From a virus (Duplodnaviria > Heunggongvirae > Uroviricota > Caudoviricetes), in IMG/VR virus record IMGVR_UViG_2671180556_000014: a stretch of 31,500 nt of DNA; one strand, 5' to 3'. The notes below the pieces were generated by a model. It did no database searches. It saw only the letters and a list, made by a program, of their open reading frames with translations, and was not told the origin of the DNA. The first letter of the stretch is position 1, and every line of letters starts with the position of its first letter. Shown piece by piece: positions 1 to 24,837 of this stretch. The position numbers were made by a program, and so were the translations under genes.

Positions 1-996
1 TTATGGACGCATTATGGACATTCCTGACACCGGGTTAAGAGTCACAGCATCTTGTAAGAAATCCGGTGCAAAGTGTGCGTAGGTCATAGTTTGCTGAATG
101 TTAGAATGACCCAGGATGCGCTGCAATGTGATTATGTTACCTCCATTCATTATAAAATGTGTGGCAAATGTATGCCTCAAAACATGCACTGCCTGTCCGT
201 CAGGTAAATCGGGTTTTACTTCCCTGAGAGCGTTGCGCACTTTGTAGTAACTGGCATTAAAAAGCCTGCCTGAGTTTTTGGTCTTGATCCGTTTAATCAG
301 GTCCTGCGAAACGGGAATTGTCCTGCGCTTTCCGTTTTTAGTTTTCATAAACGTAACCATCTGGTTAATGATGTGTTCAGCTTTTAAATTAGACACTTCA
401 CTCCAGCGTCCACCAGTAGAAAGGCAGACCAGAGTCGCATTTAATTCATCACCATCGAGCATGGATAACAGCCGTGTAATCTCTTCACTGGACAAAAAAG
501 CCATTTCTGTAACAGCTTCACGTAATCGCTTAACCTCACGGAACGGGTTGTGAGAATGGTATTCACCGGCGTCAATTAACTTGGTGAACATCCCGCTCAT
601 TATTGCCAGATGCCGATTTACGCTGGCTGGTTTTAGACCATCGTTCATCATTACAACGCGATAATCAGTTATCGTTTTCTTTGTTAGCTGGTCAGCTCTG
701 GACACTCCCATTTCTGCAAATTTGGCGATTATTGTCGTCAAACGCCCCCGTTCAATATCTCCACGCTCATGTGATTTTCCGTGATATATCCACCATCTGC
801 CTAACAACTCTGTAAGAGTTCGGCGGTCGGCTGGCTTCTCCAGCCACTCTTTGTTGTGGTAGTTAACCAGTACATGACGTTCGAATGCTTGAGCTTCACC
901 TTTAGTTTTAAATTTCCGCCTGATACGTTTTCCATCTGCACCCTGCGGTCTGACGTCCACTTCATAACGACCATCATCGAGCTTTTTAATAGACAT
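1..996 (-). CDS. int: Phage integrase, tyrosine recombinase (P2 Int-like), 331 aa
   Basis: Full-length minus-strand ORF; C-terminal HVLRHTFATHF...GHSNIQQTMTYAH region typical of the tyrosine recombinase catalytic domain; located at prophage end next to the C repressor as in P2. Window begins exactly at its stop codon. Confidence 0.9.
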   Translation of the reverse strand: MSIKKLDDGRYEVDVRPQGADGKRIRRKFKTKGEAQAFERHVLVNYHNKEWLEKPADRRTLTELLGRWWIYHGKSHERGDIERGRLTTIIAKFAEMGVSRADQLTKKTITDYRVVMMNDGLKPASVNRHLAIMSGMFTKLIDAGEYHSHNPFREVKRLREAVTEMAFLSSEEITRLLSMLDGDELNATLVCLSTGGRWSEVSNLKAEHIINQMVTFMKTKNGKRRTIPVSQDLIKRIKTKNSGRLFNASYYKVRNALREVKPDLPDGQAVHVLRHTFATHFIMNGGNIITLQRILGHSNIQQTMTYAHFAPDFLQDAVTLNPVSGMSIMRP

Positions 997-1089
997 AAAG
1001 CCCTCCGATGACGCTGTTTACTTCTACTACTTGAAAATTAATGCAATTTTCTTTCGTACATTTACTGCACACATATGCTGAATAAATCG

Positions 1090-1401
1090 TCAGCCAGTCT
1101 TTTGGTCTGAGTGGTGCAAGGTTGTTGAGTCTTGCCCAATGTGCGCGAGCGCCGGGGCTATTTGTCCGCCAGCGGGATCAGTTTCATCAAACATGAACCA
1201 GTCACGGTACTTGCGAAATCTTTCTGGCTTGAAAAATTTCATGCCTGCGTCAAAAGACATCTTTACTTTTCCCTGCTCATATCCAGCATAGGTGTTGTAG
1301 TTAATTCCAGTTAATTCAGCAACTTGCTTCCTTGTCATTCTTTCTGACTCCCGAATAAGTGCGAGTTTCTCTGCTTGAGATGTGATTTGTGTATTTGACA
1401 T
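1090..1401 (-). CDS. C: Immunity repressor C (P2 C-type, HTH), 103 aa
   Basis: ATG at 1401 gives MSNTQITSQ...; helix-turn-helix segment RKQVAELTGINYNTY; C-terminal GQIAPALAH.GQ...HS.QKTG resembles P2 C as I recall it; divergent from cox. ORF-track start at 1449 is an upstream non-canonical extension. Confidence 0.75.
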   Translation of the reverse strand: MSNTQITSQAEKLALIRESERMTRKQVAELTGINYNTYAGYEQGKVKMSFDAGMKFFKPERFRKYRDWFMFDETDPAGGQIAPALAHIGQDSTTLHHSDQKTG

Positions 1402-1505
1402 GAATTGTCGTATCTCGTAATTTATGTTGCATGCGACACGCCAGAACAACGCAGAGCGGCTTCAAATAGCTCTGGTTGAATGGCACCAAAGTTGAGGATA
1501 TCAAA
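1402..1505. promoter_or_regulatory. Divergent immunity switch region (Pc leftward / Pe rightward promoters and operators), inferred
   Basis: Roughly 100-bp intergenic region between divergently oriented C and cox, the position of the P2 lysis-lysogeny switch. Individual -35/-10 and operator repeats not resolved by eye. Confidence 0.4.
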
Positions 1506-1862
1506 ATGAGTATTGGATCAGAAATGAATAACGATGTTGGAGAAAAAGTATCTGATCTCACAAAAAGTAAAAAATGTGACATCAAACTTGCAGCCGCACC
1601 GTCGGATTTGCTCTCGAAAGAGGGATTTGCTCTTTACATCGGTAAGACGCCTCGTGCTGTTGCTGAAATGGCGAAAGCAGGCAAGTTACCAGCCTTTTAT
1701 ATGACGGACCCATTAAAGCCGGGCGGTCATGCTGAGTTATGGATTAATCGCCGTGAGTGGGACAGGTACGCAGCCCAACTAGTTGATGAAGCTCCGACAG
1801 AATGGCATGACTGGAAAAATCGCATTAGTTACAGCAAATCAAGACATGGCCGTGCGGCTTAA
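1506..1862 (+). CDS. cox: Cox-like excisionase / early repressor
   Basis: First gene of rightward early operon, divergent from C; segment GKTPRAVAEMAKAGKLPAFYMTDP resembles the Cox/Apl DNA-binding region. Start uncertain: ATG at 1506 or 1524, while the ORF-track start at 1476 is TTG. Confidence 0.6.
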   Translation: MSIGSEMNNDVGEKVSDLTKSKKCDIKLAAAPSDLLSKEGFALYIGKTPRAVAEMAKAGKLPAFYMTDPLKPGGHAELWINRREWDRYAAQLVDEAPTEWHDWKNRISYSKSRHGRAA

Positions 1863-2043
1863 GGTGGAAAGGATGAACGAGCCTCGTTGTATTGCTCAGT
1901 TATTGCGTAATGAAAGCCCCAGGGCGATTGACTTCACCATCACCCACGGTAAGGGGCGTAAGGGAATCATTATCCGCACCAAAAAACAGAGTCCGTTAAA
2001 GAAGGCTCTGACCTTTCTGAAAAGCCGGAGGGTATGGAAATGA
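1807..2043 (+). CDS. Small early-operon protein (P2 orf78-like by position and length, 78 aa)
   Basis: ATG at 1807 gives exactly 78 aa; overlaps cox 3' end. Alternative ATG at 1873 has a better Shine-Dalgarno (AGGTGG, 5-nt spacer) and would give 56 aa. Confidence 0.4.
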   Translation: MTGKIALVTANQDMAVRLKVERMNEPRCIAQLLRNESPRAIDFTITHGKGRKGIIIRTKKQSPLKKALTFLKSRRVWK

Positions 2044-2540
2044 CAGTGATGACGCTCAATCTCGTTGAAAAACAGCCAGCAGCTATGCGCCGGATAATTG
2101 GTAAGCATCTTGCCGTTCCTCGCTGGCAGGATACATGTGATTATTATAATCAGATGATGGAGCGCGAACGGTTAACGGTTTGCTTCCATGCTCAGTTAAA
2201 ACAGCGTCACGCAACGATGCGTTTTGAAGAAATGAACGACGTCGAACGTGAACGACTGGTATGTGCAATTGATGAATTGCGTGGTGCATTCTCAAAACGC
2301 CGTCAGGTTGGCGCAAGTGAGTATGCATATATTAGTTTTTTAACAGTCAGTCAGCGTCGTACTTTATTTATGCATGCCGGATTGACTGAAAAAGAATTCA
2401 ACCAGCCATACTGGCGAATTAATGAAGAGTCATGTTACTGGCGTGATGCTTTATTCCGTGCATTACGTGAATTATTCAGTCTGTTTGAGTATGCACCGAC
2501 AATTCTGACGTCGGTAAAACCAGAGCAATATCTGCATTAA
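2040..2540 (+). CDS. B: Early-operon protein, probable P2 gene B homologue (replication accessory), 166 aa from ATG 2040
   Basis: Position between cox/orf78 and A matches P2 B; length from ATG 2040 is 166 aa, the length I recall for P2 B. GGAGG sits 8 nt upstream of 2040; ATG 2034 is also possible. Confidence 0.5.
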   Translation: MTVMTLNLVEKQPAAMRRIIGKHLAVPRWQDTCDYYNQMMERERLTVCFHAQLKQRHATMRFEEMNDVERERLVCAIDELRGAFSKRRQVGASEYAYISFLTVSQRRTLFMHAGLTEKEFNQPYWRINEESCYWRDALFRALRELFSLFEYAPTILTSVKPEQYLH

Positions 2541-2603
2541 GTAATTAACCAGAGTTTTTAACGCACTTAATTGTGCGGGGCTTCTTTTTGCCTGGAGAAA
2601 GTC

Positions 2604-2828
2604 ATGCATACAGTTTCTGAAAATCAGTGCGGTAAATACGCATTACTGCTGCAACAGGCCAGAACCGAAGCACAGGCCGATGCAGCGACGCGCTTTTCTT
2701 CTCATCTTGACGCCATGATTCGCCACATCACAAAGGCGGAGTTATCCCGCGTGGAGATAGTCGAGCTGCTCAGTCAGGAGTCGGAAAAATTTCACAACAT
2801 CGGATTGTCTCGCGGGGAGGTGCTTTGA
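2604..2828 (+). CDS. Hypothetical early protein (74 aa)
   Basis: ORF with GGAG 5 nt upstream of ATG 2604; the ORF-track start at 2571 is TTG. No recognisable motif. Confidence 0.45.
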
Positions 2829-3130
2829 TGTCCTGTTCTCGTTCAGTTGTTTTACTGAACAATGCCTTAAAAATCGCCGTTATGAAAAATGGCGATTTGT
2901 CTCTTATTCAACTTTGTCTTGATAAAGAAAAACGCGACATAACTGAATCTGTTATCGCGATTTATCAGAATGAATTAAACCTCCTGTCTGATGTGGTCAA
3001 TTTACTTGTTAAACGCGCTGTATTCCACAAGCAAATTTCCTCCGTGGATGAACTGACAAAATTAACGACAGAAATCGTCAGCTATTGCGCTGATGAATTT
3101 AAGAAACTGAACGACAAAAGGAACTGGTAA
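2825..3130 (+). CDS. Hypothetical early protein, AT-rich (101 aa)
   Basis: ORF whose start overlaps the previous stop (ATGA); composition visibly more AT-rich than flanking early genes; no recognisable motif. Confidence 0.45.
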
Positions 3131-3354
3131 TGCCGGACAACGTAGATTTCATTCAGGAACAACAGGCTGAATTACTGGAGCGCCAGATTAACGCGGCAAG
3201 GGTAAAACATTGCGGTGTTTCTGCGCTGGTTTGCGAAGAGTGTGACGTGCCAATACCTGCTGCCCGTCGTGCGGCTTATCCGTCAGCCACGCGTTGTGTT
3301 TCCTGTCAGTCAGTCTTTGAAGCAAAAAACAAACATTACCGGAGAATGGCATGA
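3130..3354 (+). CDS. TraR/DksA-family C4 zinc-finger protein (74 aa)
   Basis: Four cysteines in CxxC...CxxC spacing (CEECDV...CVSC) after a helical N-terminus; typical phage TraR-like protein found in P2-like early operons. Confidence 0.65.
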   Translation: MPDNVDFIQEQQAELLERQINAARVKHCGVSALVCEECDVPIPAARRAAYPSATRCVSCQSVFEAKNKHYRRMA

Positions 3355-3626
3355 GTATTCGTATTGAAATTGGCGAACGTTATGTCGTTACCAGTGACAG
3401 CTTTCAGTTTATTCTCCACGAGAAAAAGAGAGCGGAAAGCGGTAAAAACGCCGGTCAGGAGTGGCTGGCGGTGGTTGGTTATTACCCGAAATTAAGCCAG
3501 CTCGTTTCCGGCCTGATGCATCACGATATTCTGACCGGAAGCGCAAAGTCTTTTGCTGATTTAAACGCGCAGGTTGAGCAACTCAGCAAGCGTTGTTCAG
3601 AGGCTTTTGGCTCATATGGCCGTTAA
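3351..3626 (+). CDS. Hypothetical early protein (91 aa)
   Basis: ORF overlapping upstream stop and the start of A; conserved position just before the replication gene. Confidence 0.5.
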   Translation: MSIRIEIGERYVVTSDSFQFILHEKKRAESGKNAGQEWLAVVGYYPKLSQLVSGLMHHDILTGSAKSFADLNAQVEQLSKRCSEAFGSYGR

Positions 3627-5895
3627 AGCCTCCGGGCATTTTGTCCCTCCGTCAGCATTTGCCGCAGGCACCGGTGAGATGTTTACCGGTGCTTATGCAT
3701 GGAACGCGCCACGCGAGGCCGTCGGGCGCGAAAGACCCCTTACACGTGACGAGATGCGTCAGGTGCAAGGTGTTTTATCCACGATTAACCGCCTGCCTTA
3801 CTTTTTGCGCTCGCTGTTTACTTCACGCTATGACTACATCCGGCGCAATAAAAGCCCGGTACACGGGTTTTATTTCCTCACATCCACTTTTCAGCGTCGT
3901 TTATGGCCGCGCATTGAACGTGTGAATCAGCGCCATGAAATGAACACCGACGCGTCGTTGCTGTTTCTGGCAGAGCGTGACCATTATGCGCGTCTGCCGG
4001 GAATGAATGACAAGGAGCTGAAAAAGTTTGCCGCCCGTATCTCATCGCAGCTTTTCATGATGTATGAGGAACTCTGCGATGCATGGGTTGATGCACATGG
4101 TGAAAAAGAATCGCTGTTTACGGATGAGGCGCAGGCTCACCTGTATGGTCATGTTGCTGGCGCTGCACGTGCTTTCAATATTTCCCCGCTCTACTGGAAA
4201 AAATACCGTAAAGGACAGATGACCACGAGGCAGGCATATTCTGCCATTGCCCGCCTGTTTAACGATGAGTGGTGGACTCATCAGCTTAAAGGCCAGCGTA
4301 TGCGCTGGCATGAGGCGTTACTGATAGCTGTCGGGGAGGTCAATAAAGACCGTTCTCCTTATGCCAGTAAACACGCCATTCGTGATGTGCGTGCGCGCCG
4401 CCAGGCAAATCTGGAATTTCTTAAATCGTGTGACCTTGAAAACAGGGAAACCGGCGAGCGCATCGACCTTATCAGTAAGGTGATGGGCAGTATTTCTAAT
4501 CCTGAAATTCGCCGGATGGAGCTGATGAACACCATTGCCGGTATTGAGCGTTACGCCGCCGCAGAGGGTGATGTGGGGATGTTTATCACGCTGACCGCGC
4601 CGTCAAAGTATCACCCGACACGTCAGGTCGGAAAAGGCGAAAGTAAAACCGTTCAGCTTAATCACGGCTGGAACGATGAGGCATTTAATCCAAAGGATGC
4701 GCAGCGTTATCTCTGCCGTATCTGGAGCCTGATGCGCACGGCATTCAAGGATAATGATTTACAGGTCTACGGTTTGCGAGTCGTCGAGCCACACCACGAC
4801 GGAACGCCGCACTGGCATATGATGCTTTTTTGTAATCCACGCCAGCGTAACCAGATTATTGAAATCATGCGTCGCTACGCGCTCAAAGAGGATGGCGACG
4901 AAAGAGGAGCCGCGCGAAACCGTTTTCAGGCAAAACACCTTAACCAGGGCGGTGCTGCGGGGTATATCGCGAAATACATCTCAAAAAACATCGATGGCTA
5001 TGCACTGGATGGTCAGCTCGATAACGATACCGGCAGACCGCTGAAAGACACTGCTGCGGCTGTTACCGCATGGGCGTCAACGTGGCGCATCCCACAATTT
5101 AAAACGGTTGGTCTGCCGACAATGGGGGCTTACCGTGAACTACGCAAATTGCCTCGCGGAGTCAGCATTGCTGATGAGTTTGACGAGCGCGTCGAGGCTG
5201 CACGCGCCGCCGCAGACAGTGGTGATTTTGCGTTGTATATCAGCGCGCAGGGTGGGGCAAATGTCCCGCGCGATTGTCAGACTGTCAGGGTCGCCCGTAG
5301 TCCGTCGGATGAAGTTAACGAGTACGAGGAAGAAGTCGAGAGAGTGGTCGGCATTTACGCGCCGCATCTCGGCGCGCGTCATATTCATATCACCAGAACG
5401 ACGGACTGGCGCATTGTGCCGAAAGTTCCGGTCGTTGAGCCTCTGACTTTAAAAAGCGGCATCGCCGCGCCTCGGAGTCCTGTCAATAACTGTGGAAAGC
5501 TCACCGGTGGTGATACTTCGTTACCGGCTCCCACACCTTCTGAGCACGCCGCAGCAGTGCTTAATCTGGTAGATGACGGTGTTATCGAATGGAATGACCC
5601 GGAGGTCGTGAGGGCGCTCAGAGGTGCATTAAAACACGGCCTGAGAAGACCAAACCGTCAGCAAAGAAACGGAAGCCCGTTAAAACCGCATGAAATAGCG
5701 CCATCGGCCAGACTGACCCGGTCTGAACGATTGCAAATCACCCGTATCCGCGTTGACCTTGCTCAGAACGGTATCAGGCCGCAGCGATGGGAGCTTGAGG
5801 CGCTGGCGCGTGGCGCGACCGTAAATTATGACGGGAAAAAATTCACGTATCCGGTCGCTGATGAGTGGTCGGGATTCTGGCATCAATTTGAGTAA
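3616..5895 (+). CDS. A: Replication initiation protein A (rolling-circle HUH endonuclease), 759 aa
   Basis: ATG at 3616 gives MAVKASGHFVPP...; contains HUH-type motif PHWHMMLF; length close to the 761 aa I recall for P2 A. ORF-track start at 3574 is an upstream extension. Confidence 0.9.
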   Translation: MAVKASGHFVPPSAFAAGTGEMFTGAYAWNAPREAVGRERPLTRDEMRQVQGVLSTINRLPYFLRSLFTSRYDYIRRNKSPVHGFYFLTSTFQRRLWPRIERVNQRHEMNTDASLLFLAERDHYARLPGMNDKELKKFAARISSQLFMMYEELCDAWVDAHGEKESLFTDEAQAHLYGHVAGAARAFNISPLYWKKYRKGQMTTRQAYSAIARLFNDEWWTHQLKGQRMRWHEALLIAVGEVNKDRSPYASKHAIRDVRARRQANLEFLKSCDLENRETGERIDLISKVMGSISNPEIRRMELMNTIAGIERYAAAEGDVGMFITLTAPSKYHPTRQVGKGESKTVQLNHGWNDEAFNPKDAQRYLCRIWSLMRTAFKDNDLQVYGLRVVEPHHDGTPHWHMMLFCNPRQRNQIIEIMRRYALKEDGDERGAARNRFQAKHLNQGGAAGYIAKYISKNIDGYALDGQLDNDTGRPLKDTAAAVTAWASTWRIPQFKTVGLPTMGAYRELRKLPRGVSIADEFDERVEAARAAADSGDFALYISAQGGANVPRDCQTVRVARSPSDEVNEYEEEVERVVGIYAPHLGARHIHITRTTDWRIVPKVPVVEPLTLKSGIAAPRSPVNNCGKLTGGDTSLPAPTPSEHAAAVLNLVDDGVIEWNDPEVVRALRGALKHGLRRPNRQQRNGSPLKPHEIAPSARLTRSERLQITRIRVDLAQNGIRPQRWELEALARGATVNYDGKKFTYPVADEWSGFWHQFE

Positions 5896-6021
5896 GGATC
5901 TCATCTATACAGTATAAGTAGTTTTGACTGTAATTGATTGTTTTTTATATGGTTGCATGCATTAAATCTACGTCAATATCATTATGTTATAATGCATTAC
6001 TTAAAAATGTTGGAGATAAAA

Positions 6022-6213
6022 ATGTTAAAGCCTGCAGATGTTGTTTGTTTGAAAAGCGGTGGATTTAAAATGACTGTATCTGACTCTACTGAAACTCATG
6101 CTAAATGTATTTGGCATGATAAAGAAGGAGTTTTGCACGAGGAGTCATTCTCCATTGATTTACTGGAAATAGCAGAGAGTAAAAGTGGTATGCTTTGTCG
6201 TCCACGTAAGTGA
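6022..6213 (+). CDS. Small protein with DUF2158/YodC-like motif (63 aa from ATG 6022)
   Basis: Motif VVCLKSGGFKMTV followed by CIWHD resembles the YodC/DUF2158 small-protein family (from memory). GGAG 6 nt upstream of ATG 6022; upstream in-frame starts at 5938 (TTG, 91 aa) or 5992 are possible. AT-rich. Confidence 0.45.
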   Translation: MLKPADVVCLKSGGFKMTVSDSTETHAKCIWHDKEGVLHEESFSIDLLEIAESKSGMLCRPRK

Positions 6214-6240
6214 ATCATAATAAAATTCACGGGGGAAAGT

Positions 6241-6921
6241 ATGAAACAATACAGCGAATTAGAAAACAATGTTAAGAGATTCATTGTTGAGCATGAAAAA
6301 GGGATTTCTATTGATGATATTCATCATAAGTTCCGGATGAAGGATGGTCAGAATCGCAAGATGGCAGATTATCTTATTGATAATAAAAAGATAATTTTGG
6401 AGATGAAAAGTCTTTTTTCTGACAGGGTCAAGAATGTCAATGATAAACTGAATGAGTTGGTTAAAACTGATAGTTGGCTTGCAAAAAACTGGCATGGTGC
6501 TATTCATTTAGAAGAGTTGATAAAAAGACACCCAGACTCAAAGCGATTTAGAAATGATATAATGAACTTTGCTTATGAAAATATTAAAACAAAGATAGTT
6601 AAGGAAGCTAATAAGCAAATAAATGCAACAAAGGATGTTTTGGATTTAAATGACTCGATTGGCGGGTTGATTTTGTTAAATGATAATGTCTTTTCACATG
6701 AGTCTAATTATTTGTCAGATGAAATATTATATTTGCTAGGCACAAAGAGATATTCGAGTGTTGAGTTTGTGGTTTATATTGCAAAATTGATTGATAAACA
6801 GGTTGATGTTTGTGTGCTACTTGACAGTCAATCTAAAAATAAAAATTATATTGAATGGTATATGAATAATGTTTTTTTATTGAACTGGGCGTCTTTTAAT
6901 AAATATGCAATAAAGATGTAG
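6241..6921 (+). CDS. Hypothetical protein, 226 aa, AT-rich accessory cargo (function unknown)
   Basis: Long ORF in strongly AT-rich DNA with lysine/asparagine-rich composition; ATG preceded by GGGGGAAAG; sits in the A-to-cos accessory slot. No catalytic motif recognised. Confidence 0.55.
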   Translation: MKQYSELENNVKRFIVEHEKGISIDDIHHKFRMKDGQNRKMADYLIDNKKIILEMKSLFSDRVKNVNDKLNELVKTDSWLAKNWHGAIHLEELIKRHPDSKRFRNDIMNFAYENIKTKIVKEANKQINATKDVLDLNDSIGGLILLNDNVFSHESNYLSDEILYLLGTKRYSSVEFVVYIAKLIDKQVDVCVLLDSQSKNKNYIEWYMNNVFLLNWASFNKYAIKM

Positions 6922-7240
6922 TGGTGTGGATGGATATGAAATGAGTCAACCAAGATGCACCTTGGTCAGTAATCTCATGTGAGATACCACATATAACACC
7001 AAAAGTGTCAGGTTGATGGCCATTGTTCACCGTTTACAGCAGATTATGGTCAACGAAAATCTGACGCCTGACGAGCTGGTCGGGTGTGCCGAAATAGTCT
7101 GGGATAATTACGGGCGGTTTAACTATATCGGTCAGTCCAGAGTTGCGCCACCACCACGCAGACGATAGAGAACGCCGCCAGTCGTGAAACTTGTTTTCAG
7201 GCTGGCGGGGTTGAACAACGAGCGAAGTGAGGCGTTAGCA

Positions 7241-8182
7241 TTAAGTTAATTTTAATGAATGGTACTCTATCGAGCTGATTGTAGATGCGATATATTTACG
7301 ATCATTTACAGAGAGTATTGCCGCTAGTAGACGACATACCAGAGCCTGCATTTGTAGCAATATATCGCTACCATATTGACAATCATTGATACTAGAGAAA
7401 CCAAGCGGTTGCCCATTAAAAATGGCTTCATGAAAATTATCATTGCGTATAACTGAAACATTACATTCATCTGTTGCCCATGACGGGATTTTTACACCGT
7501 AATTTTCGCACATCCAATACACTCTATTTTGATGAGATGGTTTTTTCTCTTTAATGACTTTATCCCTTTTATCCCATGCTATAGCAAAACAGCAATCAAG
7601 AGCCATATAAAGATACTGGAATTTCTCAAAGGAAAGGTATAGTGGGTTATGTGACAGGAATAGGGAGTGTATCACCGCAGCTATTCTTTTAATGGAGCGA
7701 TCATCTTTTTGTTTGTCTTTTATATAGTTAAGTGCTAGCTCTATTACTTCTTTTTCAGAGCATCCAACGAGAATAAAGTCGGTTAACTTAGTGGGCTTGA
7801 TAGTGGTTGCATCAAGAAAACCAGCGTCAGTGGTTGTCAATCTTATACCCTTGAAAAAAGAGAGGCACCACACAACAAAGTTGAGAGTTTCTAACGAGGA
7901 TGTGTTTTTTAATTTTAGTGTGTGCGTTTTGGGCATGCCGAATACTCGGTAACTATAAGGCATTGTGCATGTGTCACCATTAAGGTTATATACCTTTCGA
8001 TTCCCAGGGTATATCCAACCATTAACAACGTTTTTATCATTGTTAATACGTTCCACGTTCTCAATAAGACCGGGTAAAGTACGCAAAGAAAATTGTTCAG
8101 TCTCAATGTTAACTTCTACTGGATAGTATCCAAACTCCGAAATAATCTCATTTGGTTGCTGTTCGTCAACTTCACCTTGCAT
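7241..8182 (-). CDS. Hypothetical protein, 313 aa, AT-rich accessory cargo (function unknown)
   Basis: Long minus-strand ORF in AT-rich DNA immediately left of cos, convergent with the 226-aa gene. No Walker, HUH or other motif recognised. Confidence 0.55.
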   Translation of the reverse strand: MQGEVDEQQPNEIISEFGYYPVEVNIETEQFSLRTLPGLIENVERINNDKNVVNGWIYPGNRKVYNLNGDTCTMPYSYRVFGMPKTHTLKLKNTSSLETLNFVVWCLSFFKGIRLTTTDAGFLDATTIKPTKLTDFILVGCSEKEVIELALNYIKDKQKDDRSIKRIAAVIHSLFLSHNPLYLSFEKFQYLYMALDCCFAIAWDKRDKVIKEKKPSHQNRVYWMCENYGVKIPSWATDECNVSVIRNDNFHEAIFNGQPLGFSSINDCQYGSDILLQMQALVCRLLAAILSVNDRKYIASTISSIEYHSLKLT

Positions 8183-8420
8183 AACTTTCTCCGTTCAAAA
8201 ACAGGCACGATAATTCTCGTAAGCCTATCATGTTCGCAAAGTATCCATACCTGTGGATTTTGTAAATTTAAGTTGATTTGTCATTAAATAAGCTGTTGCA
8301 TGCAACAAGTGAATGTTTTTGCATGCGTCGGGGATGTCCGTTCAGGCTGCGTGCGGTCAGGACTGGTGCGGATCCATAGTATCTATGCAACTGCATTAAA
8401 ACCGCCCCATGAAGCGGGCG

Positions 8421-8439
8421 GGCGAGGCGGGGAAAGCAC
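8421..8439. other. cos cohesive-end site (P2-type 19-nt sequence GGCGAGGCGGGGAAAGCAC)
   Basis: Exact 19-mer that I recall as the P2 cohesive end, located just beyond Q as in P2; flanked by G-rich repeated motifs. Confidence 0.55.
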
Positions 8440-8608: not shown

Positions 8609-9643
8609 TCAGCCGTTGTCAGTGTCCAGTGAGTAGTTTTTAAATCGGATGACCTCCTGACCGAGCCAGCCGTTTATCTCGCGGATCCTGTCCTGTAACG
8701 GGATAAGCTCATTGCGGACAAAGACCTTTGCCACTTTCTCAATATCACCCAGCGACCCGACGTTCTCCGGCTTGCCCCCCATCAACTGAAAGGGGATGCG
8801 GTGCGCGTCCAGCAGGTCAGCGGCGCTGGCTTTTTTGATATTAAAAAAATCGTCCTTCGTTGCCACTTCACTGAGCGGGATAATTTTAATGCCGTCGGCT
8901 TTCCCCTGCGGGGCATAGAGAAACAGATTTTTAAAGTTATTGCGGCCTTTTGACTTAACCATGTTTTCGCGGAGCATTTCGATATCGTTGCGATCCTGCA
9001 CGGCATCAGTGACGTACATGATGTATCCGGCATGTGCGCCGTTTTCGTAATACTTGCGGCGGAACAGCGTGGCCGACTCATTCAGCCAGGCAGAGTTAAG
9101 GGCGCTGAGATATTCCGGCAGGCCGTACAGCTCCTGATTAATATCCGGCTCCAGCAGATGAAACACGGAGCCGGGCGTGAAAGGTGTCGGCTCGTTGAAG
9201 GACGGCACCCACCAGTAAACATCCTCCTCCACACCACGGCGGGTATATTTTGCCGGTGAGGTTTCCAGTCTGATGACCTTACCGGTGGTGCTGTATCGCT
9301 TTTCCAGAAACGCATTACCGAACACCAGAAAATCCAGCACAAAGCGGCTGAAATCCTGCTGGGAAAGCCACGGATGCGGGATAAATGTCGAGGCCAGAAT
9401 ATTACGTTTGACGTAAATCGGTGAGCTGTGATGCACGGCAGCACGCAGGCTTTTTGCCAGACCGGTAAAGCTGACCGGTGGCTCATACCATCTGCCGTTA
9501 CTGATGCACTCGACGTAATCCAGAATGTCACGGCGGTCGAGTACCGGCACCGGCTCACCAAAGGTGAATGCCTCCATTTTCGGGGCGCTGGCGGTCATTG
9601 TTTTTGCCGCAGGTCGCGGTGTTTTCCCTTTTTTCTTGCTCAT
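8609..9643 (-). CDS. Q: Portal protein Q, 344 aa
   Basis: Length matches P2 Q (344 aa); start overlaps the terminase stop; position next to cos. Confidence 0.85.
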   Translation of the reverse strand: MSKKKGKTPRPAAKTMTASAPKMEAFTFGEPVPVLDRRDILDYVECISNGRWYEPPVSFTGLAKSLRAAVHHSSPIYVKRNILASTFIPHPWLSQQDFSRFVLDFLVFGNAFLEKRYSTTGKVIRLETSPAKYTRRGVEEDVYWWVPSFNEPTPFTPGSVFHLLEPDINQELYGLPEYLSALNSAWLNESATLFRRKYYENGAHAGYIMYVTDAVQDRNDIEMLRENMVKSKGRNNFKNLFLYAPQGKADGIKIIPLSEVATKDDFFNIKKASAADLLDAHRIPFQLMGGKPENVGSLGDIEKVAKVFVRNELIPLQDRIREINGWLGQEVIRFKNYSLDTDNG

Positions 9644-19748: not shown

Positions 19749-20352
19749 TTCGCGCCTGCTGCCGACCGGCTCATCACCACTTGAAGTCGCCGCCGCAAAA
19801 GCCTGTGCGGAAATTGAAAAAACGCCGGTCAGTATTCGTGAGCTGTGGAACCCGGATACCTGTCCGGCAAATCTGCTGCCGTGGCTGGCGTGGTCATTTT
19901 CGGTCGACAGGTGGGATGATAAGTGGCCGGAAGCGACAAAACGCGCTGTTATCCGCGATGCGTATTTCATTCACTGCCATAAGGGCACTATTGGTGCGAT
20001 TCGCCGTGTGGTGGAGCCGCTCGGCTATCTGATTGAGGTGAGGGAGTGGTGGCAGCTCAACGAGGAGCCGGGGACGTTCCGCATCGTTGTTGGCGTGCTT
20101 GAGCAGGGTATTACCGAGGAAATGTATCAGGAGCTGGAGCGCCTCGTTGCTGATGCAAAACCGGCGAGCCGCCATCTGACGGGACTGGCTATCAGTTTAA
20201 GTACAACCGGCAACATTTTTGCCGGTGCGGGATGCTATCACGGTGACGCCCTGACGGTTTATCCCTACACCCCGGAGGCCATTATTGTCGGAGGGGATTA
20301 TTTCCCGGCCTCGGCCATTCATTTAATTGATAACCTGAGAGTAAACGCATGA
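19741..20352 (+). CDS. I: Baseplate/tail-fibre attachment protein I, 203 aa
   Basis: Synteny between J and H; start overlaps J stop and end overlaps H start. Confidence 0.8.
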
Positions 20353-21527
20353 CAGTGAAATACTACGCCATTCTGACTAATCAGGGCGCAGCACGGCTGG
20401 CTAACGCGACGATGCTCGGCAGTAAGCTGAATCTGACGCAAATGGCCGTTGGTGATGCGAATGGTGTCTTGCCGACACCAGACCCGGCACAGACAAAACT
20501 GATTAATCAGAAACGCATCGCGCCGCTGAATCTTCTGAGCGTTGATCCGAACAACCAGAGCCAGATTATTGCGGAGCAAATCATCCCTGAGAACGAGGGT
20601 GGATTCTGGATCCGTGAGATTGGGCTTTATGATGATGAAGGCGTACTCATTGCGGTGGCGAACTGCCCGGAAACGTACAAACCGCAGTTACAGGAAGGCA
20701 GTGGTCGTACCCAGACTATCCGCATGATTCTGGTTGTCACGAATACCGAAGCCATCACGCTGAAAATCGACCCGTCGGTGGTACTGGCGACCCGTAAATA
20801 CGTGGATGATGAAGTCCTGGAATTAAAGCTGTATGTGGATGACAAGATGGCAAAACATATTGCCGCACAGGATCCTCATACCCAGTATGCACAGAAACAT
20901 AATCCGACATTTACCGGAGAACCAAAAGCGCCGACGCCTGCCGCAGGAAATAACACCACGCGGATTGCGACCACTGCGTTTGTTCAGGACGCTATTACCG
21001 CTCTGATTAACGGTGCGCCAGCCACGCTGGACACACTGAAAGAAATTGCCGCAGCCATTAACAATGATCCGAAATTCAGCACCACCATTAACAATGCGCT
21101 GTCAGATAAGCAGCCACTGGATGAGACGCTGACTCATTTGAGTGGAAAGGATGTTGCCGGTCTTCTCGCATACCTTGGTTTGGGAGAAGCGGCTAAAAGG
21201 AATGTAGGGACAGGGGCGAATCAGCTACCTGATATGGGTAGCTTCACGCTTTCTGTTTCAGGTACTGGATATCAAAAATTACCATCAGGTTTTATTCTTC
21301 AGTGGGGCTCAATCGGCGCACCAGGCATTGCACAGGATGTAGTAACCCATTTCCCGATTGCATTTCCAAACAGATGTCTGCGTGTTTTGGTCTCACAAGA
21401 CTACACACCAGATAGCGGGGCTGTTGGTTATATTGCCTGTGCAGGTTTTAGTTCCGACCCGGTTAAATTTATATCCAGAGCCAGTACTCCTGGCCTCGGC
21501 GCTTCATTTTTAGCGTTAGGCTGTTAA
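20349..21527 (+). CDS. H: Tail fibre protein H: constant N-terminal part (aa 1-280) joined to variable C-terminal cassette Hv1 in the current orientation, 392 aa
   Basis: N-terminus and the NDPKF...SDKQP region resemble the P2 H / Mu S constant domain; the constant/variable junction at 21189 coincides with a 26-bp invertase crossover site. Confidence 0.85.
21163..21188. other. Invertase crossover site 1 (gix/hix-like, 26 bp) at H constant/variable junction
   Basis: TTCTCGCATACCTTGGTTTGGGAGAA: 12-bp half sites around a 2-bp core, resembling the Gin/Hin/Cin/Pin site pattern; identical in inverted orientation to 22999..23024. Confidence 0.6.
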
Positions 21528-21548
21528 TTTAGCTATATGGAGTGAAAA

Positions 21549-21989
21549 ATGAATTACATATATTCTGCGACTACAAACTCTTTCTATCCGCTGGAGATGA
21601 AAGAGGATTACACTCAAGCTGACTCATGGCCAGATGATGCTGTTGAAGTTGATGAGCAGGTGTATATTGAGTTTTCCGGATTACCGCCGGAAGGAAAAAT
21701 CCGTATCGCTGGAGAAAATGGTTTTCCTGCATGGTCTGAAATTCCACCACCAACGCATGAGGAACAGATTGCTGCAGCCGAATTGGAAAAGCAGCAATTG
21801 ATTAATCAGGCCAACGATTATATGAACAGTAAACAATGGCCTGGTAAAGCGGCGATTGGTCGTCTGAAAGGTGAGGAACTGGCGCAATATAATTTGTGGC
21901 TGGATTATCTGGACGCACTGGAGCTGGTCGATACGTCCAGTGCGCCAGATATTGAATGGCCTACGCCTCCGGCAGTTCAGGCCAGATGA
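21549..21989 (+). CDS. Tail fibre assembly chaperone (G/Tfa-like) paired with Hv1, 146 aa
   Basis: Immediately downstream of H; C-terminus (LWLDYLDALELVD...APDIEWPTPP) resembles tail fibre assembly proteins; convergent with a second tfa gene. Confidence 0.75.
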   Translation: MNYIYSATTNSFYPLEMKEDYTQADSWPDDAVEVDEQVYIEFSGLPPEGKIRIAGENGFPAWSEIPPPTHEEQIAAAELEKQQLINQANDYMNSKQWPGKAAIGRLKGEELAQYNLWLDYLDALELVDTSSAPDIEWPTPPAVQAR

Positions 21990-22554
21990 CGTCCGGCGCG
22001 GTGCTGGTATCTGTTGCCGTCACCGCGTCAATGTAATCCAGCACGGCGTTAAGTCGGGTTGTTTCTGCCTGAGTCAGTTTCCGTCCGGCCTGTAATTTCA
22101 GCTGAATCAGACTAATGGAAGCCATTGCTGCATCAATCAGTGACTGGCGCTGTGCTTCTGCTGCTTCTACTGCGGCGTTATGCTGTGCCTCAGTATCTGT
22201 CACCCATTTCTCACCATCCCATTTATCATATGGCGTTAACGGTGAAAGCGTGACATAACCGTTTTTGATGGCACCGATATAATCCACTGTAACAGCTGCG
22301 CCATTTTCTGTTGAGTAAACAGTCTCATTGCGATGGTCTTCTTCATGGCTCCATCCCTTACCCGTAAATACTGCCACTTTCCCCGGAATGTTTTCGCCCG
22401 GGTCAATACCAGTGGAACAGGCGGGCATACTTACGCCAGTATTAATATATTCATCAGACCAGCCCGTATACTCAGATGTTTCAGCATCATAATAAAAACA
22501 ACGCATATCGCCCGGCACTGTAGCCAGCCCATTTTCATCAAAAACAGGTTTCAT
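21961..22554 (-). CDS. Alternative tail fibre assembly chaperone (Tfa, paired with Hv2), 197 aa
   Basis: Minus-strand ORF convergent with and overlapping the 3' end of the plus-strand tfa; C-terminal motif (LNAVLDYIDAVT...APDVIWPELP) parallels the other tfa. Confidence 0.7.
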   Translation of the reverse strand: MKPVFDENGLATVPGDMRCFYYDAETSEYTGWSDEYINTGVSMPACSTGIDPGENIPGKVAVFTGKGWSHEEDHRNETVYSTENGAAVTVDYIGAIKNGYVTLSPLTPYDKWDGEKWVTDTEAQHNAAVEAAEAQRQSLIDAAMASISLIQLKLQAGRKLTQAETTRLNAVLDYIDAVTATDTSTAPDVIWPELPEA

Positions 22555-22996
22555 TATTTAGCCCTCACCAGAAAGTTAAATGCAATATTTCGCGGTCTGA
22601 CAGCAACAAAATTCACACCATCACCCACAGAGTTACTGGTGAAATTAAATCGTGAAAATCCTGGCTGATTTCCGGCGATGCCATCATGAAAGTTAATTGC
22701 GTGTCCCGCACCTTCGCCTATATTCCCGGCAAACTGAGAAAAGTTTGTAGCTGCCTGCCAGCTTAATAATTCGCGACCACCGTCTGCACCTCGCCCGTCA
22801 TCCCAGATACGAATGAAATCACCGCGGGCTTCAGGTAATACCAGCGAAGGAAACACTTTCGCCAGCACAGGATAATCAGTGGCAGAGAATTTCGCGCCGT
22901 TGAACTTCAAAAACACCATACTGGACCAGCTGTCGATTACAGTATTTGGCATTGCAGCGGACGGCCAGAAGAACGGAACGCCAATAGCTGGAGCAC
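22554..22996 (-). CDS. Alternative tail-fibre variable C-terminal cassette (Hv2), here fused in frame to an inverted partial copy of the H constant region
   Basis: Minus-strand coding sequence ending VRPRNIAFNFLVRAK, joined at 22997 to a reverse-complement copy of H codons 73-280; the ORF-track reading frame continues to 23531. Confidence 0.65.
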
Positions 22997-23623
22997 CTTC
23001 TCCCAAACCAAGGTATGCGAGAAGACCGGCAACATCCTTTCCACTCAAATGAGTCAGCGTCTCATCCAGTGGCTGCTTATCTGACAGCGCATTGTTAATG
23101 GTGGTGCTGAATTTCGGATCATTGTTAATGGCTGCGGCAATTTCTTTCAGTGTGTCCAGCGTGGCTGGCGCACCGTTAATCAGAGCGGTAATAGCGTCCT
23201 GAACAAACGCAGTGGTCGCAATCCGCGTGGTGTTATTTCCTGCGGCAGGCGTCGGCGCTTTTGGTTCTCCGGTAAATGTCGGATTATGTTTCTGTGCATA
23301 CTGGGTATGAGGATCCTGTGCGGCAATATGTTTTGCCATCTTGTCATCCACATACAGCTTTAATTCCAGGACTTCATCATCCACGTATTTACGGGTCGCC
23401 AGTACCACCGACGGGTCGATTTTCAGCGTGATGGCTTCGGTATTCGTGACAACCAGAATCATGCGGATAGTCTGGGTACGACCACTGCCTTCCTGTAACT
23501 GCGGTTTGTACGTTTCCGGGCAGTTCGCCACCGCAATGAGTACGCCTTCATCATCATAAAGCCCAATCTCACGGATCCAGAATCCACCCTCGTTCTCAGG
23601 GATGATTTGCTCCGCAATAATCT
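22997..23623 (-). repeat. 627-bp inverted duplicate of the H constant region (partner copy 20563..21189 on plus strand)
   Basis: Both ends checked by eye by reverse-complement comparison; translated sequence ANCPETY...LAYLGLGE is identical in both copies. Starts mid-codon with no recombination site at the 20563/23623 end. Confidence 0.8.
22999..23024. other. Invertase crossover site 2 (hybrid site: Hv2-side half plus H-constant-side half)
   Basis: TTCTCCCAAACCAAGGTATGCGAGAA, the reverse complement of site 1. Confidence 0.6.
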
Positions 23624-23624
23624 A

Positions 23625-24176
23625 CAGCCCGTATACTCAGATGTTTCAGCATCATAATAAAAACAACGCATATCGCCCGGCACTGTAGCCAGCCCATTTT
23701 CATCAAAAACAGGTTTCATTATTTAGCCCTCACCAGAAAGTTAAATGCAATATTTCGCGGTCTGACAGCAACAAAATTCACACCATCACCCACAGAGTTA
23801 CTGGTGAAATTAAATCGTGAAAATCCTGGCTGATTTCCGGCGATGCCATCATGAAAGTTAATTGCGTGTCCCGCACCTTCGCCTATATTCCCGGCAAACT
23901 GAGAAAAGTTTGTAGCTGCCTGCCAGCTTAATAATTCGCGACCACCGTCTGCACCTCGCCCGTCATCCCAGATACGAATGAAATCACCGCGGGCTTCAGG
24001 TAATACCAGCGAAGGAAACACTTTCGCCAGCACAGGATAATCAGTGGCAGAGAATTTCGCGCCGTTGAACTTCAAAAACACCATACTGGACCAGCTGTCG
24101 ATTACAGTATTTGGCATTGCAGCGGACGGCCAGAAGAACGGAACGCCAATAGCTGGAGCACCTTCTCCCAAACCAA
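23625..24176 (-). repeat. 552-bp direct duplicate of 22460..23011 (Hv2 cassette plus first 31 codons of the alternative tfa)
   Basis: Ends checked by eye; ORFs 23719..24216 and 23459..23719 encode proteins identical to Hv2 and to the first 31 aa of the 21961..22554 Tfa before diverging. Confidence 0.8.
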
Positions 24177-24188
24177 CGTTTATGAAAA
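24163..24188. other. Invertase crossover site 3 (native right-hand site next to invertase gene)
   Basis: TTCTCCCAAACCAACGTTTATGAAAA: same left half as site 2, right half from unique flank; 50 bp upstream of the invertase start. Confidence 0.6.
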
Positions 24189-24237
24189 TGCAGAGATAAC
24201 GGGCAACTGGCATCATCTCCGGTTTTTATTCAGGGGG

Positions 24238-24837
24238 ATGCTCATGCTTATTGGCTATGTACGCGTGTCAACAAATGACCAGAATACGGAATTGCAGCGT
24301 AACGCGCTGGAGTGCGCAGGATGTGAGCTGATTTTTGAGGACAAAATCAGCGGCACGAAGTCCGACAGGCCGGGACTGAAAAAACTGCTCAGGACATTAT
24401 CGGAGGGGGATACACTGGTAGTCTGGAAGCTGGACCGGCTGGGGCGTAGTATGCGGCATCTGGTCATTCTGGTTGAGGAGCTGCGCGAACGCGGCGTTAA
24501 TTTTCGCAGCCTGACGGATGCTATTGATACCAGCACGCCGATGGGGCGTTTTTTCTTTCATGTGATGGGTGCCCTGGCCGAAATGGAACGAGAACTCATT
24601 GTCGAGCGGACACGCGCCGGACTGGAAGCGGCCAGAGCCAAAGGTCGTATTGGTGGCAGACGTCCGAAACTCACCGCGAGTGAGTGGGAGCAGGCCGGGC
24701 GGTTGTTGGCTGCAGGGGAATCACGTCAACGCGTGGCACTGATTTTTGATATTGGCCTGTCCACGCTCTATAAAAAATTCCCCGCCTCCGTGACAAAAAA
24801 TAAATTGTGTCATCCCTTAGCCAACCGGGACAAATAG
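24238..24837 (+). CDS. Site-specific DNA invertase, serine recombinase (Gin/Hin/Cin/Pin family)
   Basis: N-terminus MLIGYVRVSTNDQ with catalytic serine, resolvase-type core and C-terminal HTH (LSTLYKKF); adjacent to the invertible tail-fibre segment. Start may be ATG 24238 or 24244. Confidence 0.9.
   Translation: MLMLIGYVRVSTNDQNTELQRNALECAGCELIFEDKISGTKSDRPGLKKLLRTLSEGDTLVVWKLDRLGRSMRHLVILVEELRERGVNFRSLTDAIDTSTPMGRFFFHVMGALAEMERELIVERTRAGLEAARAKGRIGGRRPKLTASEWEQAGRLLAAGESRQRVALIFDIGLSTLYKKFPASVTKNKLCHPLANRDK

Follow-up and report, generated by a model that had tools for sequence, protein, structure and literature searches.

The window analysed here is a 31,500-nucleotide stretch of DNA from a virus of the Caudoviricetes (IMG/VR record IMGVR_UViG_2671180556_000014), in which an AT-rich block at positions 5896-8420 occupies the accessory slot between replication gene A and the cohesive-end site (cos) of a P2-like prophage. 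Three open reading frames (ORFs) in this block, encoding a DUF2158 protein, ORF226 and ORF313, appear from comparative analysis to form two independent cassettes rather than one system, and the two larger proteins are predicted nucleases that probably protect the host of the prophage from other phages. The main features, with positions in the window, were as follows:

3574-5895, plus strand: replication gene A, backbone and left boundary of the slot, a 773-amino-acid ORF of 53.4% G+C whose counterpart in an E. coli locus of 99.8% identity is named 'replication endonuclease'
5879-6980, plus strand: cassette 1, an AT-rich insert of 31.9% G+C with the DUF2158-ORF226 operon, delimited by homology breakpoints with Wphi and a Yersinia phage
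6022-6213, plus strand: DUF2158 small protein of 63 amino acids, matching Pfam PF09926 (expectation value, E, of 4.7e-8, above the curated cut-off) and phrog_3261
6241-6921, plus strand: ORF226, a predicted PD-(D/E)xK nuclease of 226 amino acids with the catalytic candidates D43, E54 and K56
6981-7238, no strand: backbone-like spacer between the cassettes, present in other P2-like phages whatever their cargo
7241-8182, minus strand: ORF313, a predicted stand-alone RNase of 313 amino acids with an N-terminal alpha/beta domain (about residues 1-140) and a C-terminal helical HEPN-like domain
8421-8439, plus strand: P2 cos cohesive-end sequence GGCGAGGCGGGGAAAGCAC, right boundary of the slot, an exact 19-nucleotide match
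8609-9643, minus strand: portal gene Q, backbone and right flank, a 344-amino-acid ORF named 'phage portal protein' in a near-identical locus

The G+C content of the block was 37.0% while that of the remaining window was 53.6%, and no other 2,525-bp sliding window came lower (mean over all of them 52.6%, standard deviation 5.3%). These figures bear out the contrast with the backbone and the foreign composition proposed in a first-pass annotation of the window. The block fits exactly between the stop of gene A (5895) and the P2 cos at 8421. The 19-nucleotide sequence, which we take to be the P2/P4 cos core, had no match in 100 shuffles, and together with the end of gene A it confirms the proposed location in the slot that carries tin and old in P2; the three ORFs, with the two large ones convergent, were also found as first annotated. 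The same 19-mer is present in the P4 sequence of Table S2 in Rousset et al. 2022 (PMC9122126). Beyond cos lie the minus-strand genes for the portal (Q) and then the terminase (P), and the window is a nearly complete P2-like prophage since its run of genes goes from the integrase to the tail genes. Positions 1-3400, including the integrase, C-repressor-like and cox-like ORFs and a B-like gene, were AT-richer than the structural genes at 40-49% G+C per 400-bp window.

The AT-rich block was not uniform. Two islands at 5879-6980 (31.9% G+C) and 7239-8385 (38.1% G+C) were parted by a backbone-like segment of 258 bp and 50.8% G+C at 6981-7238. Homology to the backbone of Wphi and of the Yersinia phage stopped near 5878, returned at 6981-7238 and stopped again until the cos region, and P2 and Wphi matched the region only at the gene A end, in the spacer and on the cos side. 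Identity in the spacer amounted to 90% with Wphi, 98.5% with Yersinia phage VB-YPM-4 and 81% with the 186-like phage vB_EcoM-613R3, and a G+C-rich inverted repeat lies in it at about 7173-7207, between the convergent genes. Comparison of the slot across related P2-like phages therefore upheld AT-rich cargo but not a uniform block, since the shared spacer splits it into two islands.

The two cassettes also occurred separately. Cassette 1 as a unit was present in 27 of 5,426 complete E. coli genomes, and in Citrobacter P2-like prophages the same slot held the DUF2158-ORF226 pair, at 75-83% protein identity, but not ORF313, while ORF226 alone (64% identity) was carried by IncFII conjugative plasmids of Pantoea that have no DUF2158 gene in the vicinity. 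ORF313 was found without cassette 1 in the Yersinia phage, in the 186-like phage, where its neighbours were tum/dinI-type genes, and in other E. coli P2-like prophages, where its neighbour was an ImmA/IrrE peptidase gene. At least 80% of ORF313 was covered in 51 complete E. coli genomes, at least 24 of them beyond the carriers of cassette 1, and in the P2-like and 186-like phages ORF313 was always on the cos side while its upstream partners varied. Synonymous divergence (dS) between the window and the locus of E. coli ECOR67 was 0.033 for ORF226 and 0.427 for ORF313, and so great a difference between the same two loci points to separate histories of the cassettes. All three genes were under purifying selection, with ratios of nonsynonymous to synonymous divergence (dN/dS) of 0.09-0.28.

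Either two independent modules or one two-component system had been envisaged in the first-pass annotation. The independent modules stand, while the single system is contradicted by the separate occurrence and by the dS values of 0.033 and 0.427. It is accordingly highly unlikely that the three genes are one integrated system, whether a sensor with two effectors or a toxin with its controls. The sole point in its favour, weighed lightly, is that in E. coli the 27 genomes with cassette 1 equal in number those with at least 80% of the whole locus. Set against this are the further E. coli genomes and the Yersinia and 186-like phages with ORF313 alone, the Citrobacter and Pantoea occurrences, and the homologs of ORF313 that are lone genes in Pseudomonas, Acinetobacter and Aeromonas. 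The cassettes are moreover convergent, with a backbone segment between them and separate promoter candidates, which are given here with a doubtful gene of the spacer:

5985-5993, plus strand: candidate promoter of the extended -10 type, TGTTATAAT, for the DUF2158-ORF226 operon, 29 nucleotides before the ATG at 6022, by consensus match only
7013-7168, plus strand: ORF of 51 amino acids inside the spacer, a doubtful gene, named 'meiotically up-regulated 80 protein' by the Prokaryotic Genome Annotation Pipeline
8257-8284, minus strand: promoter-like site upstream of ORF313, ATGACA-16-CAAAAT (9 of 12 matches in a consensus scan), a candidate by consensus alone

Translated matches to the 51-amino-acid ORF were found in Wphi, the Yersinia phage and the 186-like phage. 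Because the spacer occurs in phages with unrelated cargo, this ORF is no specific partner of either cassette and its name is almost certainly an annotation artefact; it may be no gene at all.

The three proteins were scanned against the family libraries Pfam, NCBIfam, PADLOC v2 and PHROGs. Only DUF2158 found a match in the first three, and PHROGs gave full-length matches only to families of unknown function. The lack of likeness to tin, old or any known defence family, noted by eye in the first-pass annotation, therefore held in PADLOC v2, Pfam and NCBIfam. In structure-based analysis, also proposed there, ORF226 has a predicted nuclease fold, and Foldseek against the PDB gave nothing significant for ORF313. 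The locus resembles P2 Old and Tin in its place between gene A and cos, in its presumed exclusion role and in its AT-rich accessory character (PMC9122126). Old, however, is a nuclease of the ABC-ATPase/TOPRIM kind and Tin is directed against T-even phages, and the three proteins match neither, with no PADLOC or Pfam match to Old (ABC ATPase and TOPRIM) or Tin homologs at E<=1.

A GGAG Shine-Dalgarno site precedes the DUF2158 gene, which ends 27 nucleotides before ORF226. The pair has been kept in Escherichia and Citrobacter prophages, with DUF2158 at 74-76% identity and a dN/dS of 0.18-0.20, and ORF226 is under strong constraint (dN/dS 0.09-0.11). Twenty-six proteins, all enterobacterial, made up the close ORF226 family, and an exhaustive profile search added 348 remote relatives. 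Only D43, E54, K56, Q126 and N147 did not vary across 34 of these relatives, whose identity was 21-41%. The predicted structure has the alpha/beta core fold of restriction endonucleases, with D43 just before the strand at 44-46 and E54-M-K56 inside the strand at 51-57, the next strand of the hairpin. In the model, the arrangement is that of PD-(D/E)xK enzymes, with the D...(D/E)xK signature on adjacent beta-strands. ORF226 had no Pfam, NCBIfam or PADLOC match, the Pfam restriction endonuclease families included, and sequence searches of the PDB gave nothing for either ORF226 or DUF2158. For the DUF2158 family no known function was found, nor did the sequence search give a related solved structure; the small protein is possibly a regulator, sensor or inhibitor of ORF226.

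This predicted fold and signature are shared with PD-(D/E)xK defence nucleases, namely the type II/IIS restriction enzymes BsmI, PspGI, NgoMIV and SdaI, NucC, Can2 and those DefensePredictor 'DS' systems that have such domains, and a domain of this type is present in 13 of the 31 additional validated E. coli DefensePredictor systems, within otherwise new proteins. Unlike these defence nucleases, ORF226 lacks a methyltransferase, cyclase or CRISPR partner next to it as well as a separate domain for DNA recognition, and its partner is instead the 63-amino-acid DUF2158 protein. No methyltransferase domain was found in DUF2158, ORF226, the 51-amino-acid ORF or ORF313, which are all the ORFs between gene A and cos, and with the cognate methyltransferase missing the locus was not classed as a restriction-modification system. 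Nor did the locus include a cyclase or other known partner gene. A link to cyclic-oligonucleotide-based anti-phage signalling systems (CBASS) was also rejected, as the PADLOC matches of remote ORF226 relatives to PDC-S12, CBASS E2 and cyclase models were to a C-terminal SEC-C zinc motif or to marginal stretches, outside the ORF226-like domain. Identity with Mrr_cat or DpnII-MboI was dismissed likewise, these matches in remote relatives being marginal or outside that domain.

Several relatives of ORF226 are larger or have neighbours related to defence. In proteins of 560-740 amino acids (P0162, P0166, P0175, P0182, P0231 and P0249) the ORF226-like domain is central, at about residues 340-525. 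An N-terminal Mrr_cat domain is added in P0166, P0182 and P0249, and P0182 also has the C-terminal SEC-C zinc motif; the Mrr_cat fusions would hold two nuclease-like domains. A 41%-identical relative (locus L025, 5327-7539) is directly downstream of a CI/LexA-like repressor gene (HTH_3 and Peptidase_S24) and beside a DUF4238 protein, with a BamHI restriction-modification system and a large serine recombinase nearby, forming a compact mobile defence islet. Rousset et al. 2022 (PMC9122126) validated DUF4238 as a system against T7. In another case the relative and GIY-YIG, DUF4145, Mrr_cat and SLATT genes form an array on one strand. On the Pantoea plasmids the ORF226 homolog is followed by variable opposite-strand genes, which include a 226-amino-acid ORF in one plasmid locus (L019, 6296-6976, minus strand) and a 210-amino-acid ORF with a Macro-domain protein in two others (L017 and L018). 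This suggests that the region after the Pantoea homolog is another small cargo hotspot.

The ORF313 family consisted of 260 proteins at E<=0.001, nearly all of 305-330 amino acids, from the Enterobacteriaceae, Aeromonas, Providencia, Acinetobacter, Pseudomonas, Stenotrophomonas and others. In 33 diverse homologs, down to 44% identity, R246, N247, H251 and E252 were invariant; the stretch R246-N-D-N-F-H251-E252 is an RNxxxHE motif with the Rx4-6H signature of HEPN RNases. The N-terminal 140 residues held more than 20 further invariant positions in the same alignment. The AlphaFold monomer model (predicted local distance difference test score 82.5, predicted template modelling score 0.83) has an alpha/beta domain to about residue 140 followed by a helical domain, and residues 246-270 around the motif are its only internal stretch of low confidence. 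Foldseek comparison of this model with the whole PDB gave no match better than E 0.65. No Pfam match was found for the 33 full-length members at E<=0.1, the HEPN_Apea and HEPN_AbiV models included, or for eight isolated C-terminal domains of the family at E<=10, and no PADLOC match for any of the 33 members at E<=0.1. Marginal matches of the ORF313 profile in the PDB to ribonucleotide reductase R2 (E about 0.01, 40 residues) had no logic of fold or motif and were taken as chance. The UniRef name 'Apea-like HEPN' on one homolog was not reproduced with the current Pfam models and was treated as a lead only. Taken with the motif and the model, a divergent HEPN domain in ORF313 is very likely, and by these searches the protein would fit no named HEPN family.

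Divergence along ORF313 was uneven within its overall dN/dS of 0.13-0.28. Residues 201-245, just before the motif, were the most variable, with 36-58% identity among close alleles compared to 68-89% elsewhere. There was no sign of positive selection in residues 201-245 (dN/dS 0.23-0.24) and the variability reflects deep allelic divergence. Between the window and ECOR67 (L002, 1408-2349) the gene is a mosaic, with a dS of 0.011 for codons 1-140 and of 0.8-2.1 for codons 141-313, which places a recombination breakpoint at the predicted domain boundary. Among the genomic contexts examined no conserved neighbour of ORF313 homologs was found. In P. aeruginosa the homolog is a lone island gene, and a Gabija-like GajA/GajB pair (OLD-TOPRIM ATPase and UvrD helicase) lies 3 kb away, with ParB and DUF932 genes nearby; the A. 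baumannii homolog is in a small island with a PIN_8 protein.

Several single-protein HEPN defences resemble ORF313 in part. HepS is a stand-alone HEPN abortive-infection protein of the Gifsy-1 prophage, constitutively present and inactive until a phage product is sensed, upon which it cleaves tRNA anticodon loops (Sargen et al. 2026, PMC13043305). Like ORF313, it has the Rx4-6H motif and is encoded by one prophage gene that occupies an accessory slot and lacks a conserved partner. HepS family members are shorter than 250 amino acids and consist of the HEPN domain alone (PDB 9OIJ), while ORF313 has 313 residues, and membership in this family was rejected. ApeA was reportedly identified as a single-gene HEPN defence by Gao and colleagues in 2020. 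It has about 580 amino acids, with helical N-terminal and Mid domains, and assembles into decamers or dodecamers (Juozapaitis et al. 2026 preprint). ApeA is, as ORF313 is predicted to be, a single-protein defence with a diverged C-terminal HEPN domain, which in ApeA has insertions and is controlled by a non-catalytic ligand pocket. ORF313 is however about half the size of ApeA and has an alpha/beta rather than helical N-domain, and given this architecture and the missing PADLOC match in 33 members it was not taken to be an ApeA. DARNA and Tha combine a sensor and a HEPN RNase in one polypeptide, as ORF313 may. DARNA, a tRNA anticodon nuclease of 456 amino acids, has the reverse domain order, its HEPN domain being N-terminal and followed by a Pds5-like sensor of single-stranded DNA at the C-terminus. 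Tha, which is prophage-encoded and triggered by tail proteins, belongs to Staphylococcus prophages. Neither had detectable sequence similarity to ORF313 in the PADLOC families.

The locus has been deposited before. Over 2.56 kb it shares 92.9% identity with GenBank AM157369, titled 'Bacteriophage P2-EC67 proviral ORF226 and ORF313', which covers ORF73, ORF226 and ORF313 of P2-EC67 from E. coli ECOR67, and the locus is 99.6% identical to phage vB_EcoM-720R8. Of the 5,426 complete E. coli genomes, 27 carried at least 80% of the locus. Rousset et al. 2022 (PMC9122126) called the gpA-gpQ slot a defence hotspot, counting 1,650 gene arrangements among 18,150 loci; their Table S5A holds the exact RefSeq proteins of the window (WP_001547483, WP_023136039 and WP_032179103), and their Table S5B lists ORF226 with the DUF2158 protein as system 63, 'DUF2158', with 67 occurrences. 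Both AM157369 and this catalogue present the genes as hypothetical only, with no domain assignment or phenotype. The term 'undescribed' in the first-pass annotation was therefore too strong, and the locus is uncharacterised rather than unseen. N-terminal peptides of ORF226, ORF313 and DUF2158 had no match in Table S2 of Rousset et al., which gives the cloned systems, and appeared in the Table S5 catalogue only; this, together with the lack of a PADLOC match, ruled out identity with, or homology to, the validated P2-hotspot systems DUF4238, HP+HP+HP and DprA+PRTase. An accession search of the literature placed the three proteins in no other paper. They were not found by sequence or accession in the DefensePredictor supplements searched, though they may be listed there as predictions only.

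The reading that we favour, and consider reasonably probable, is that the block is a P2 A-to-cos hotspot with two independent, shuffled single-effector cassettes that would be expressed from the prophage to protect its host from other phages. Both large proteins have the signature of a nuclease superfamily that dominates defence effectors, and relatives of both are found in defence-rich mobile contexts. We infer their enzymatic activity, substrates and triggers, along with expression in the lysogen and the anti-phage effect itself, as follows. Cassette 1 would be transcribed rightward as an operon from its own promoter, with ORF226 cutting nucleic acid, most likely DNA, and DUF2158 controlling or helping it as a regulator, sensor or inhibitor. 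Cassette 2 would be the leftward single gene ORF313, in which the N-domain would keep the HEPN domain inactive until an infection cue; once activated, the protein would cleave RNA, probably tRNA anticodon loops or mRNA, and so abort the infection. The model of a protein inactive until triggered draws on the analogy with HepS, ApeA, DARNA and Tha.

Several points weigh against a protective role. The Aeromonas homolog of ORF313 is located among housekeeping genes with no defence neighbours, and no experiment on these proteins was found in the papers and supplements searched. The slot also holds non-defence genes, including partition systems and a cytolethal distending toxin, and only three of eight extra P2 loci gave a phenotype in Rousset et al. 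2022 (PMC9122126). In favour of protection, on the other hand, six of eight randomly picked unknown loci at the P4 hotspot gave defence in a 2026 Nucleic Acids Research study of P2 and P4. A bolder form of the proposal is possible, though we lean slightly against it: ORF313 may found a widespread, unnamed Gammaproteobacteria family of single-protein abortive-infection RNases, in which a new and unusually conserved N-domain senses a small-molecule or nucleic-acid cue, rather than a fast-evolving phage protein, and switches on a divergent HEPN domain, with alleles recombining at the domain boundary, and DUF2158-ORF226 may be a new two-gene nuclease defence.

Other functions can be imagined for genes of this kind. 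One or both cassettes might be addiction or toxin-antitoxin modules that stabilise the prophage or plasmid with no real phage protection, DUF2158 being the antitoxin of ORF226 and ORF313 a self-restrained toxin. This appears rather unlikely, since ORF226 does not strictly need DUF2158, whose gene is missing beside it on the Pantoea plasmids and beside the 41%-identical homolog of the islet; moreover, ORF313 has no conserved neighbour anywhere, and the slot and the neighbourhoods are enriched in defence. Many modules resembling toxin-antitoxin pairs are also abortive-infection systems, and the explanation overlaps in part with the protective cassettes proposed here. It is slightly less probable again that the genes serve the phage's own cycle or counter-defence, by degrading host nucleic acid, by interfering with P4 or host defences, or by a solitary modification-dependent restriction, rather than protecting the lysogen. 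Phage nucleases often have such roles and the locus lacks a methyltransferase, the long ORF226 relatives with an Mrr_cat fusion are reminiscent of type IV restriction enzymes, and the slot adjoins cos, which P4 exploits (PMC9122126). Both families are nevertheless widespread outside phages, in chromosomal islands and on plasmids, which fits cargo protecting a host or element better than a P2-specific role in the life cycle, and the slot varies greatly, and can be dispensed with, among P2-like phages that are otherwise alike; type IV restriction would in any case be a form of defence. The least probable of these explanations is that the fold assignments are wrong, so that the proteins are no nucleases and have a function unrelated to the cleavage of nucleic acid.

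Elsewhere in the window, a Gin/Cin-type serine invertase gene (24238-24837, plus strand; Resolvase and HTH_7) adjoins a minus-strand partial tail-fibre ORF at 22554-23531, which matches only the last part of the Phage_tail_fib N-domain model. This partial ORF and a tail-fibre assembly gene (21961-22554, Caudo_TAP) lie opposite a plus-strand tail-fibre gene at 20349-21527, and positions 20349-24837 look like an invertible host-range switch of the Mu G-segment type. Between the putative invertible segment and the invertase, a 165-amino-acid ORF (23719-24216, minus strand) had no Pfam match and lies roughly at what is presumably the second accessory slot of P2 (Z/fun).

The slot, the principle and the effector folds were already known, as was the locus itself through public catalogues of hypothetical proteins. 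The additions made here are the division of the block into two cassettes, the assignment of ORF313 as HEPN-like and of ORF226 as PD-(D/E)xK, each with candidate catalytic residues, the lack of membership in any of the named families tested and the mosaic of ORF313. Nuclease genes of unknown function in the P2 hotspot are what specialists would now expect, and the locus will be only mildly surprising until it has a known phenotype or trigger; the cassettes form a well-defined candidate pair for cloning and phage challenge. The locus shows the assembly of a P2 hotspot at nucleotide resolution, with a cassette on each side of a conserved spacer and, in ORF313, recombination at the boundary between its predicted domains. 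If the proposed functions are true, two unnamed families would join the anti-phage repertoire of P2-like prophages and the DUF2158 family, which includes E. coli YodC, would gain its first functional handle. ORF313 would be the more useful of the two, being short, self-contained and conserved from Escherichia to Pseudomonas and Acinetobacter, with a distinctive N-domain, and its ligand or trigger could show a new mode of sensing infection, as with ApeA, DARNA and HepS.

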